Notes under the pieces: generated by a model
What the model was told of the DNA's origin: nothing
What the model saw: only the letters and a program-made list of their open reading frames with translations
Databases searched by the model: none
NCBI GenBank assembly: GCA_029856525.1
Contig: JAHQXC010000025.1
Span: forward strand, 1-16,100
Length of the DNA: 16,100 bases
Direction: 5' to 3'
From: Candidatus Odinarchaeia archaeon
GTDB taxonomy: Archaea; Asgardarchaeota; Odinarchaeia; Odinarchaeales; Odinarchaeaceae
In this document: positions 966 through 4,798 of the stretch, one piece after another
Position numbering within the stretch: the stretch's first letter is position 1
Layout of the letters: each line of letters opens with the position of its first letter
Translations under genes and position numbers: made by a program

Positions 966-1715
966 ATGAAGCCGGCTTCCGTGAATATTAAAAAGATTAT
1001 TTCAAATATAACAAGTTCAGGTCGCTGTGTTTTAACAGAGGATGAGAGTAAATCCATTCTTAGAGAGATAGGTATACCATTCCCAGAGTATGAAATAGTA
1101 GGCAGCGCTGAGGAGGCGGCTGAGGCGGCTGAGCGTTTAGGATACCCTGCGGTGCTTAAAATTATATCACCTGACATTATCCATAAGTCGGATTACGGCG
1201 GCGTTATACTCAACTTAGACAATAAAAGAGAAGTGATTGAAGCCTATAATAAAATTTTAGGTAATATTTCAAGAAAAGTATCTAATGCTAAAATCCACGG
1301 AGTTATGGTTTATAAAATGGCTCCGCGGGGTATAGCTGAATTACTAATAGGTGTCTCATACGATGAACAGTTCGGCCACGTGTTAGCCGTCGGATTAGGC
1401 GGTGTATTCGTAGAGTTGTTAAAAGATGTAAGTATAAGGTTGATTCCTATTTCAAAGCTTGAAGCAGAAGATATGCTAAAAGAGTTAAAGTCTTATCCTA
1501 TTCTAACCGGTTATAGAGGTTCAGTGAAGGCTGATATAGATAGCGTTAAACAAACTCTTATTAAAATCTCTGATCTTATCGTTGAAACTCCTGAAATATT
1601 AGAGCTTGACTTAAACCCTGTTATCGTTTATGAAAAAGGCTTAACCGTAGTCGACGCTAGGATAATACTTGCCGGTAGGGTTAGACCCCTTTTTAATATT
1701 AAAGAAAATGTTTGA
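966..1715 (+). CDS. acdB: ADP-forming acetate/acyl-CoA ligase beta subunit (ATP-grasp)
   Basis: LTEDESKSIL, GYPAVLKIISPDIIHKSDYGGV, ELLIG...DEQFG, GLGGVFVELLKD, ELDLNPV, VVDARI are typical of ACD beta/ATP-grasp_5 domains. No alpha subunit in the window. Confidence 0.92.
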   Translation: MKPASVNIKKIISNITSSGRCVLTEDESKSILREIGIPFPEYEIVGSAEEAAEAAERLGYPAVLKIISPDIIHKSDYGGVILNLDNKREVIEAYNKILGNISRKVSNAKIHGVMVYKMAPRGIAELLIGVSYDEQFGHVLAVGLGGVFVELLKDVSIRLIPISKLEAEDMLKELKSYPILTGYRGSVKADIDSVKQTLIKISDLIVETPEILELDLNPVIVYEKGLTVVDARIILAGRVRPLFNIKENV

Positions 1716-2918
1716 AATAATATTTATACTCTTTTTCAAATCCTCTACACCGCTCTCCGTTCTTTTATTTTTAAAAGAAAGCATTTTAGCAATGAAAGAG
1801 AATGCAAGCGTGGTTTTACGAGCAAACTCTGGAAGTGAATTCAATATATTAGTAGGCAGGGCGAGCTCGTTTTCAAACCCTATTATAATACTTCCTATGT
1901 TATTCAAAAGAATCCTCGTATCTATAGATAAATCTTGATTTGAAAGATCTTCATAAAAACTTCTAAGCGAAAGAGAATAGTCTTCACCGAATATTGAACG
2001 GCGAATACTATTATAAATACTTAAAACCATTCTGTAATCGTTTTCATCAAATTTAATAGAGCCTCTCGCATACTGGATAAAAAGATAGATTATTTGAATT
2101 AAAGATTTAAGCTCACTGTAGAATCCAGGCTTCTCCTCGATTATAGTCCTTAAAACCATGTTATCTAATATTCTCTCAACAAGGTTTTCAGCTAAATTAT
2201 TCTGCTCTAAATCCTCCATATACTCTAAAAGGCGCATAATATTTTCCTTTCTAATAAAATTCTTCACGTTAAATAATATATCGAATTCGAATACTGGTAG
2301 TCTGAAACATACCGTTCTATAAAGCTCATAACTTTTTAAAACACTATCCGAGCTTAACCGTTCCTCCCCCTTAGATGAAGACAATAATAGGGCTAGAATA
2401 ATAATAGTGTAACGTATTAGTAGAATAAATTTTTCTTGAATAATCCGCTCGCTTCCACTAAATATTTGAGTCACATACAGTGTAAACCGTTTAATAATCT
2501 CTTTGAAAGCATTCTTCGCGTTAAAAGAAATCTCTAGGTTACAACATTTTCTAAGCTCCGATAAGAAATTCCATTGAAGATTTTTAAGATTTCTAAATGT
2601 TCTACCTTCAGCTAACTCAGACCATAATCTTTCAGTGGAATAAAATTCAATAAAGTATAATGCTTTATGCAGATCCTCTCTATCAACACTGCTATGATTC
2701 TTTTTTAAGCTTACAGTTTTCGCAAAGAAAACTGTGAATGCTTCAAGCATTTTCATAAAACGTGTATTAGCTAATCCGTCTCCTGAGAGTTTATCGCCTA
2801 TATTTTTTAAGTATTTTCTAAGCTCCTCAGCCGCTTCTGGTTTAAACTTTAAATCTACAAATTTTCGGTAGAAATCTAAAGTCGTATTAAGCTTATCCAA
2901 AGCTTTCACCATGTACAC
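1641..2918 (-). CDS. Hypothetical all-helical protein with four ~100-aa repeats; candidate tandem histone-fold (or AAA+ lid-like) protein
   Basis: Intact 425-aa ORF. Repeat-end motifs HSSVDREDLHKAL (aa75-87), EERLSSDSVLKSY (185-197), SIKFDENDYRMVL (287-299) and RTESGVEDLKKSI (386-398), spaced 110/102/99 aa. The CDS is confident; the fold call is tentative. Confidence 0.6.
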   Translation of the reverse strand: MYMVKALDKLNTTLDFYRKFVDLKFKPEAAEELRKYLKNIGDKLSGDGLANTRFMKMLEAFTVFFAKTVSLKKNHSSVDREDLHKALYFIEFYSTERLWSELAEGRTFRNLKNLQWNFLSELRKCCNLEISFNAKNAFKEIIKRFTLYVTQIFSGSERIIQEKFILLIRYTIIILALLLSSSKGEERLSSDSVLKSYELYRTVCFRLPVFEFDILFNVKNFIRKENIMRLLEYMEDLEQNNLAENLVERILDNMVLRTIIEEKPGFYSELKSLIQIIYLFIQYARGSIKFDENDYRMVLSIYNSIRRSIFGEDYSLSLRSFYEDLSNQDLSIDTRILLNNIGSIIIGFENELALPTNILNSLPEFARKTTLAFSFIAKMLSFKNKRTESGVEDLKKSINIISNIFFNIKKGSNPTGKYYPSVDYG

Positions 2919-3931: not shown

Positions 3932-4798
3932 TTGTCAGAGGAGCTGATAAGTCGATTAGAAGAGTTGAAGATTAAATCTACTGAAATCAAAAAACAAAGA
4001 GACGAGTATAATGAAATAGCTAAAAGGTACGCTGAAGAAAGAGATGCTAAAAATGCTCAGATATCCTCTCTGCTAGCGCAAGCTAAAGAGAAGAAAAATC
4101 TGAGAGATGATTTAAATTCGAAAGTAGCAAGTCTTAAAACTAAAAGAGAAGAGTTAGAAAAAACTAACGAGCAGCTTTTAAAAGAGTATAATAAGTTAAA
4201 AGAAGAGTTAGCTGCTTTAAACCCGCCTAGAACACCGCTTAAAACTCTTAAAAATAGGGTTAAAGATCTTGAATGGAAACTGCAAACTAATGTTCTCTCA
4301 TTAGAAAAAGAGAAAGAGATAGTTAAAGAAATATCTGAATTAGAGAAACTAATCGAAGATAAGAAAAAAGCTGACGAGTTGAAAAACCAACTAATCTTAT
4401 ATAAGACTCAGATTGCCGCTAACAAGCTTGAACTAAAGAATATTAAAAACATGATTATCGATACTGCTAAATCATCTCAAAACGAGCATAACACTATGGC
4501 TGAGATTTACAAACAGGTTGACGAGGTTAGAAAACAGGCTGATGAACTTCACAACAAATTTCTTGAAGCTAAAGCGAAGGCAGACGAATATCATAATCAA
4601 TACTTAGAAATAAGAAAGCAAATGAAGGAAATCATAGATAAAATACACCAGTTAAAGTTAAAAGATAAAGAGGAGAAAGAAAAACTTATAGAGCAGAGAA
4701 TAAACCAGCTTCTTAAGACAGCTCAAGAAAAATTGAATGCAGGAGAGAAACTCAGCTTCGAAGAGTTCCAGGTTTTAATGGAGAAAGGGTTAATATAA
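3932..4798 (+). CDS. Conserved archaeal coiled-coil protein (COG1340-like)
   Basis: K/E-rich heptads, RDEYN/RDAKN/RDDLN repeats, LEWKLQTNVLSLEKEKEIVKEISELE and C-terminal KLSFEEFQ recalled for this family. TTG start. Confidence 0.8.
   Translation: MSEELISRLEELKIKSTEIKKQRDEYNEIAKRYAEERDAKNAQISSLLAQAKEKKNLRDDLNSKVASLKTKREELEKTNEQLLKEYNKLKEELAALNPPRTPLKTLKNRVKDLEWKLQTNVLSLEKEKEIVKEISELEKLIEDKKKADELKNQLILYKTQIAANKLELKNIKNMIIDTAKSSQNEHNTMAEIYKQVDEVRKQADELHNKFLEAKAKADEYHNQYLEIRKQMKEIIDKIHQLKLKDKEEKEKLIEQRINQLLKTAQEKLNAGEKLSFEEFQVLMEKGLI

Follow-up and report, generated by a model that had tools for sequence, protein, structure and literature searches.

The window analysed here comprises positions 1 to 16,100 of contig JAHQXC010000025.1 of Candidatus Odinarchaeia archaeon (assembly GCA_029856525.1, forward strand), and at 1641..2912 on its minus strand lies a gene for a protein of 423 residues. 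Structure models and fold searches suggest, with a probability that we place at about 0.7, that this is a non-enzymatic, all-helical protein made of four tandem four-helix bundles of the AAA+ C-domain ('lid') type, which would act as a scaffold or adaptor. Each copy would consist of two helix-strand-helix motifs with a hinge between them, tied together by a short intra-unit β-bridge. The copies appear nearest in size and shape to the lids of MCM/Mg-chelatase-clade ATPases, with no P-loop ATPase core attached. A first reading of the DNA letters (hereafter the original prediction) had proposed an orphan histone quadruplet, with four MCM/AAA+ lid-like bundles lacking an ATPase as its alternative; it is this alternative that strand spacing, models and fold searches bear out.

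The gene is real and under purifying selection, as judged from a ratio of nonsynonymous to synonymous substitution rates (dN/dS) of 0.14–0.27 against three congeneric orthologues and from the presence of the family, in genome searches, in 7/7 Odinarchaeia and in 32 of 400 Asgard genomes (16 of 85 genera). The protein is thus not an orphan. Each of these open frames spans ~400–450 residues, and the family, which has no Pfam model, is conserved in Asgard archaea. The open reading frame (ORF) as listed opens at GTG 2918, two codons upstream of ATG 2912. The latter is the likely translation start, as it yields the same 423 residues as the database copy; the stop codon occupies 1641-1643.

Four homologous units and their predicted structure

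Four homologous helical units of ~100–105 residues each make up the whole protein. This agrees with the original prediction, whose four ~100-residue units, reading frame, strand and seven quoted motifs were all found in place. Within the single sequence, a Smith-Waterman comparison of unit 1 with unit 4 gave a z of 3.7, a score reached by 2 of 300 shuffles, and the remaining pairs stayed at z ≤2.2. Profiles of the units, drawn from a 19-member family alignment and compared using hhalign over 79–94 columns, returned P-values of 2.7e-10 for units 1 and 2, 5.8e-10 for units 1 and 4, 6.8e-8 for units 2 and 4, 8.7e-7 for units 1 and 3, 1.9e-6 for units 3 and 4, and 2.3e-4 for units 2 and 3. As all six pairs are significant, the four-fold repeat is real. 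Unit 3 is the most divergent repeat, and these comparisons yielded no order of duplication among the units. In a pooled alignment of 63 units, the common pattern reads Y..L, h.h..A...L..h, variable loop, h.hhS, h...Dh...h.hh.

When the pooled unit profile was run against the organism's own genome, it returned the four units of the target and one further match (E 0.016). The latter falls within the C-terminal portion of an ORF of the Phos_pyr_kin (ThiD) type, runs past its stop codon, and was judged to be a chance match. This ORF of 444 residues (L127 297-1631, G000:C125) combines an N-terminal Phos_pyr_kin (ThiD) domain with a C-terminal extension of ~190 residues, for which no Pfam match was obtained at E ≤0.01.

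The full AlphaFold model has a predicted local distance difference test score (pLDDT) of 81 and a predicted template-modelling score (pTM) of 0.75, and its DSSP pattern is H-E-H-loop-H-E-H in units 1, 2 and 4; in the models, these three units adopt the AAA+ C-domain fold. Unit 1 (residues 8-105, window 2598..2891, minus strand, as for all features of the protein) is predicted to start with helix 11-20, strand 22-23 and helix 25-43, followed by a hinge at residues 44-49, and to continue in its second half with helix 50-70, strand 75-76, helix 78-93 and a short helix 97-101. The equivalent elements in unit 2 (residues 106-210, 2283..2597) are helix 116-125, strand 127-128, helix 130-147, hinge 148-152, helix 153-180, strand 185-186 and helix 188-204, and conservation within the family is highest in this unit, at Y195, R199 and F203. 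Unit 4 (residues 313-410, 1683..1976) would comprise helix 316-324, strand 326-327, helix 330-348, hinge 349-359, helix 360-381, strand 386-387 and helix 389-408. Unit 3 (residues 211-312, 1977..2282) is modelled as all-helical and has an isoelectric point (pI) of 4.9. A non-conserved tail (residues 411-423, 1644..1682), predicted to be disordered and with pLDDT <50 at residues 410-423, completes the chain; it is missing or different in the orthologues.

We also folded unit 1 alone, using the pooled unit alignment. The resulting model is a compact bundle with the same H-E-H-loop-H-E-H pattern (pLDDT 88.3, pTM 0.77). Since only two strands are present in this model, their pairing is necessarily within the unit. 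The hinge segments measure 5-13, 5-16, 11-18 and 16-17 residues in units 1 to 4 across the family, mostly with Gly or Pro, and the segment around the unit 1 hinge contains one of these two residues in 13 of the 19 members. Because its length varies among members and Gly or Pro is mostly present, the segment reads as a loop rather than as the middle of a helix. In unit 1 it includes the stretch 'DKLSGD' (2766..2783), which forms a loop in the full and the single-unit model alike.

Lids, histone folds and other helical bundles compared

Histone folds and AAA+ C-domains are both composed of two helix-strand-helix motifs (Alva et al. 2007; PMC1847821). A signature resembling the L2-α3 region of histones is indeed present at the end of each unit, as originally noted, but such a signature is common to histone folds and AAA+ C-domains (PMC1847821), and here it would represent their shared helix-strand-helix motif.

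A VIA-align search with the single-unit model placed MCM lids in all of its top six positions, with Z-scores of 8.1-8.9 over 79-89 residues and with contiguous chain ranges. Next in rank were ORC1 (Z 7.6; root-mean-square deviation (r.m.s.d.) 2.1) and PCP_red (asr4154, PDB code 2L09; Z 7.2, r.m.s.d. 2.1, over all 62 residues). Lids of RuvBL (Z 6.3-7.0), Lon, BchI, ComM, Rpt3, FtsH and MuB were matched further down. A shape search of the ESM Atlas with the same unit returned PCP_red, DUF3987, Mg_chelatase_C, MCM_lid, TIP49_C and the LonB lid at template-modelling (TM) scores of 0.60-0.67, and no histone family among its ten rows. Together with the MCM lid, the lids of the MCM/Mg-chelatase clade (Mg_chelatase_C, ComM/YifB and the C-terminus of DUF3987) are the top structural matches in these searches. 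Foldseek found Lon and MCM lids for the single unit at probabilities of 0.96-1.00, with E-values >0.1. Taken one at a time from the full model, the units overlay individual lids with r.m.s.d. values of 2.0-2.4 over 57-77 residues. The Rpt3 C-domain, for example, overlays residues 126-200 of unit 2 (r.m.s.d. 2.1, 57 residues), and unit 4 can be superimposed onto asr4154/PCP_red (r.m.s.d. 2.3, 62 residues), the MuB lid and the BchI lid. The Foldseek lists for the full model are dominated by transporters and terpene synthases at TM scores of 0.1-0.17, and high probability was reached only by local matches to MCM5/7.

For comparison at the sequence level, sequences from Asgard genomes were used to make reference profiles of histones (PF00808) and of the lids of MCM, Cdc6 and TIP49. 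In hhalign comparisons, unit 1 gave P 1.6e-5 against histones, 5.1e-5 against the MCM lid and 2.4e-4 against the TIP49 lid; for unit 2, the values were 5.5e-5 against the TIP49 lid and 1e-3 against histones. A control comparison of the histone and TIP49-lid profiles with each other gave P 7.3e-6. Unit 1 and the MCM lid align collinearly across 64 columns, whereas alignment of this unit with histones opens a gap of 15 residues in the middle of histone α2. The two strands also allow a measurement of spacing, taken as the distance between equivalent anchors after each strand. This distance is 52, 58, 55 and 59 residues in units 1, 2, 3 and 4, compared to 52 residues (range 50-58) in the MCM lid, 39 in the TIP49 lid, 39-40 in the Cdc6 lid and an invariant 35 in 18 histones. 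Unit 1 resembles the MCM lid (PF17855) in its two helix-strand-helix motifs, its hinge and its exact spacing, although sequence similarity to that family is marginal (the MCM_lid model matches 1/19 members, E 0.13).

The TIP49/RuvBL lid (TIP49_C, PF17856) is the sole Pfam family that matches members repeatedly, with hits in 8/13 and 6/19 family members and a best E-value of 1.4e-6. Two relatives reach 28.8 and 25.6 bits (cut-off 24.5), and others 22.2-22.8 bits. These matches fall at the end of unit 2, on its last helix-strand-helix, and cover only ~25 residues; the spacing of this lid differs from that of the units, and the target has neither its ATPase domain nor its domain II. The one Pfam match of the target sequence, Utp13 (E 0.06), was treated as chance. 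Searches of PDB sequences with the family profiles returned nothing, or the ATP synthase c subunit at E ~1, which we treated as hydrophobic-helix noise, and feature searches of the ESM Atlas with the whole protein and with unit 1 scored 0.75-0.79, a level that shuffled sequences also reach; one of the rows returned had PF00808 in 11% of its members and was not used as evidence.

The protein does not belong to the AAA+ ATPases themselves, as it has no P-loop core and its whole 423 residues are accounted for by the four units. No AAA or P-loop Pfam model matched the target or any relative, and the motif G-x4-G-K-[ST] is not present in the target sequence; the only sequence close to it, 'GSNPTGKY', has Tyr as its last residue and belongs to the non-conserved tail. 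Compared to an MCM lid, the target lacks the ATPase α/β core, carries four tandem copies, and does not conserve the sensor-2 Arg with which the third lid helix begins: R51 of unit 1 is kept within the Odin genus only and is replaced in distant members.

A generic α-helical repeat or solenoid, either ARM/HEAT-like or sigma-factor-like, in which the likeness to lids would merely reflect a common four-helix arrangement, is an unlikely alternative. By the notes of the search tool, every structural Z-score is of a size that helical bundles can attain by chance. Three relatives give weak matches to ARM_ECM29_C in the unit 2-3 region (E 0.003-0.014), and unit 3 resembles sigma-factor domains (Z 3.5-3.7). 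The matches, however, are overwhelmingly to AAA+ lids of many families, over contiguous ranges, and not to random helical proteins; TIP49_C is hit in the family, the MCM lid alignment is collinear, and three of the four units have two short predicted strands where the helix-strand-helix motif calls for them.

Less probable still is a histone-fold quadruplet, in which four divergent folds would pair intramolecularly into a pseudo-tetramer that binds or modulates chromatin. Like histone doublets (HMk, PDB code 1F1E) and the 'acidic quadruplets' of Poseidoniales, the protein has helix-strand-helix motifs, the L2-α3-like signature and several units per chain. The histone profile similarity of unit 1 is weak but real, and structural matches include H2A-H2B, 1f1e (Z 6.8, r.m.s.d. 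2.3), the Melbournevirus doublet and Sos. Moreover, true archaeal histone quadruplets exist; they are restricted to Poseidoniales and have a median length of 262 residues, or ~65 residues per fold (PMC13260811).

Several observations, however, argue against this reading. The gap in the histone alignment, the anchor spacing, the loop predicted at the break and the tolerance of indels there all indicate that the units would not have the continuous α2 of a histone; the extra residues correspond to an indel-tolerant hinge. Handshake pairing between folds is not seen in the models either, where the isolated unit folds alone with its strands paired to each other. Histone doublets reached Z-scores of 6.2-6.8 only across both folds (chain ranges 18-151, 47-231 and 33-177), and because these matches draw on both folds, one unit equals half a histone dimer, as expected for a lid (Alva et al.). 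A single histone-fold chain was a worse match (TAF9, Z 5.7, r.m.s.d. 4.6). Histone Pfam models, including PF00808, match 0/19 members at E ≤5, and the P-value of unit 1 is no better than that of the control, so that on profile grounds membership of a histone family is not apparent. At ~105 residues, the units are also larger than the ~65 residues per fold of the known quadruplets. Since the fold searches identified AAA+ lids as the best match, they speak against the handshake pseudo-tetramer in the very way the original prediction had named as its refutation.

The residues through which histones contact DNA are likewise absent, as had been noted from the start. There is no conserved RKT-type L2 or R-D pair across the family and no conserved basic character: the pI of the members ranges from 5.5 to 9.7, a spread that argues against a conserved role as a DNA wrapper, and a canonical histone is already encoded in the same genome. 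Details of the histone reading fall away as well. The R-x6-D pair proposed for unit 4 involves an Arg that is R, K, H, E or A in relatives. 'DKLSGD' had been read as the histone L1 in an α1-L1 register, but the profile alignment puts L1 at 'LKF' (residues 21-23) and leaves 'DKLSGD' as the hinge. Finally, the histone-like distance of 37-38 residues from L1 to the α3 Asp was an artefact of anchor choice, and profile-supported anchors give 52-59 against 35. On present evidence the protein is not a new kind of chromatin protein, and we see in it a warning for histone surveys that an L2-α3-like signature, even when accompanied by a profile P near 1e-5, is insufficient to assign a histone fold.

A Clp/Hsp100 N-domain-like module for substrate or adaptor recognition is the least probable of these alternatives: Clp N-domains, the third fold constructed from the ancestral helix-strand-helix element, consist of a four-helical motif duplicated in tandem (PMC1847821), and the Hsp104 N-domain was matched (Z 4.9 with the unit, 3.6 with the full model), but it ranked 49th, at Z 4.9 versus 8.9 for lids, these domains have another strand pairing and two repeats instead of four, and no member matches Clp_N in Pfam.

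Proposed role of a protein of four lid-like units

Lids serve in cis as contact and docking surfaces within AAA+ machines. To our knowledge, they are normally single and tied to an ATPase core, with very few examples beyond. Given that lids act as contact surfaces in AAA+ rings and that Dpoe2NT, the N-terminal domain of the DNA polymerase epsilon B subunit, has a lid fold outside an ATPase, the four lid-like modules may present protein-protein contact surfaces, and we infer a scaffold or adaptor role. An AAA+ or other NTPase machine may be the partner of the protein.

Dpoe2NT (PDB code 2V6Z) was described as the first lid fold outside AAA+ proteins (PMC2528186). Like PCP_red, it is a stand-alone module of this kind: both are lid-type four-helix bundles with a short parallel sheet and no AAA+ ATPase; Dpoe2NT was matched at Z 5.0. 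These are, however, single domains in larger proteins or small single-domain proteins, whereas the target has four copies, and no sequence relationship to either is detectable, the sole trace being a Dpoe2NT match at E 1.3 in one member.

Several points weigh against the proposal of a four-lid scaffold. The structural scores are middling (Z ≤8.9), a level that helical bundles often reach, and Foldseek returned no E-value ≤0.001 for the single-unit model or for the full model, the latter searched against PDB and Swiss-Prot. The AlphaFold models rest on shallow alignments of 13 and 63 rows, and unit 3 has no predicted β-bridge. Profile comparison alone cannot separate lids from histones, the histone P-value of unit 1 is slightly better than that for the MCM lid, and the target itself has no Pfam family match. 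As for function, a role as scaffold or adaptor is most likely but purely inferred, and no partner, operon or fusion was found.

A protein consisting of nothing but four lids would, if confirmed, represent a new architecture for the AAA+ lid fold, and it would add an uncharacterised family, one that Pfam does not model, to the lineage closest to eukaryotes. In sequence, the family is intermediate between lids and histone folds, which makes it useful for testing whether histones originated by domain swapping. Two more speculative ideas follow, to which we give a low probability. In one, the family would be a living instance of how, according to the proposal of Alva et al., histones arose: the unswapped C-domain array would open its hinges, and adjacent units or two chains would trade helix-strand-helix halves to form histone-like handshake pairs. 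In the other, a lid-only pseudo-oligomer would dock in trans on the cores of MCM-clade or other NTPases and regulate them in Asgard archaea.

The MCM protein of the host keeps its own lid, and nothing ties MCM and the target functionally. MCM-lid matches (G000:C116:5735-5992, L074 and others) are located in very long frames, of 1653 residues in the genome of the window and 1100-1990 residues in many other Asgard genomes, which suggests MCM genes that contain inteins. TIP49/RuvBL-like proteins of ~460 residues with a full TIP49_C lid (81-93 bits; L120-L125) occur in 6 of 31 sampled Asgard genomes and are not found in the Odin genus. A complementary distribution of the family and TIP49-like ATPases was considered and dropped, as most Asgard families have neither.

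Relatives and gene neighbourhood

The nearest named relative is OdinLCB4_001545 of Candidatus Odinarchaeum yellowstonii (72% identity), and exhaustive phmmer searches identified further relatives at 36%, 26% and 16% identity. In the 19-member alignment every family member aligns across all four units, which places the quadruplication before the split of the carrier lineages. The phmmer searches gave only proteins of ~400 residues and one fragment of 162 residues; no fused form was found, although no search was aimed at fused or split forms. A third, word-index homologue search with the 19-member alignment added only three unnamed metagenomic proteins. Among the AlphaFold Database clusters, the full model matched a single unnamed relative over its full length (E 2.8e-9), along with five unnamed proteins that match spans of two units.

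Two family members contain an in-frame stop (one TGA, one TAA) and are possibly pseudogenes or sequencing errors, and one genome has a second, partial copy that spans unit 1 only. The loci of these copies are G090:C15:47509-48423, G132:C112:9622-9933 and G003:C141:3346-3654.

The window is archaeal, encoding a GPN-loop GTPase, an archaea-specific threonyl-tRNA synthetase (ThrRS) editing domain, DUF7121 and a TrmB regulator. The order GPN GTPase, ATP-grasp_5, target, TatD, DUF7121 and metallo-β-lactamase is kept in two other Odin genomes. In distant Asgard lineages, the GPN-loop GTPase, ATP-grasp_5, UPP synthase and DUF7121 recur beside the family gene. These recurrent neighbours are housekeeping genes and are mostly convergent or divergent to it, and we read the neighbourhood as old housekeeping synteny rather than as an operon. 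Public sequencing runs included no RNA run listed with the target, and the sole run is probably the source metagenome.

Here, the 3' end of the target overlaps convergently with that of the ATP-grasp_5 gene (966-1715, plus strand) by 75 nt, at window 1641-1715. The same overlap is 29-33 nt in two other Odin genomes, and the greater length in this window results from the non-conserved C-terminal tail of the target.

DUF7121, a protein of 288 residues (window 3932-4798, plus strand; L009 377-1240, minus strand), is a recurrent neighbour in both Odinarchaeial genera, and in the second of these its gene is directly divergent from the family member. A context unlike that in Odinarchaeia is observed in another Asgard lineage (f13; L018 333-1163(-) and 2601-3251(+), likewise L020-L023), where a TraB/PrgY/gumN-family gene follows the family member in the same direction, 20-30 nt downstream, and a divergent PhoU_div (DUF47) gene precedes the family member.

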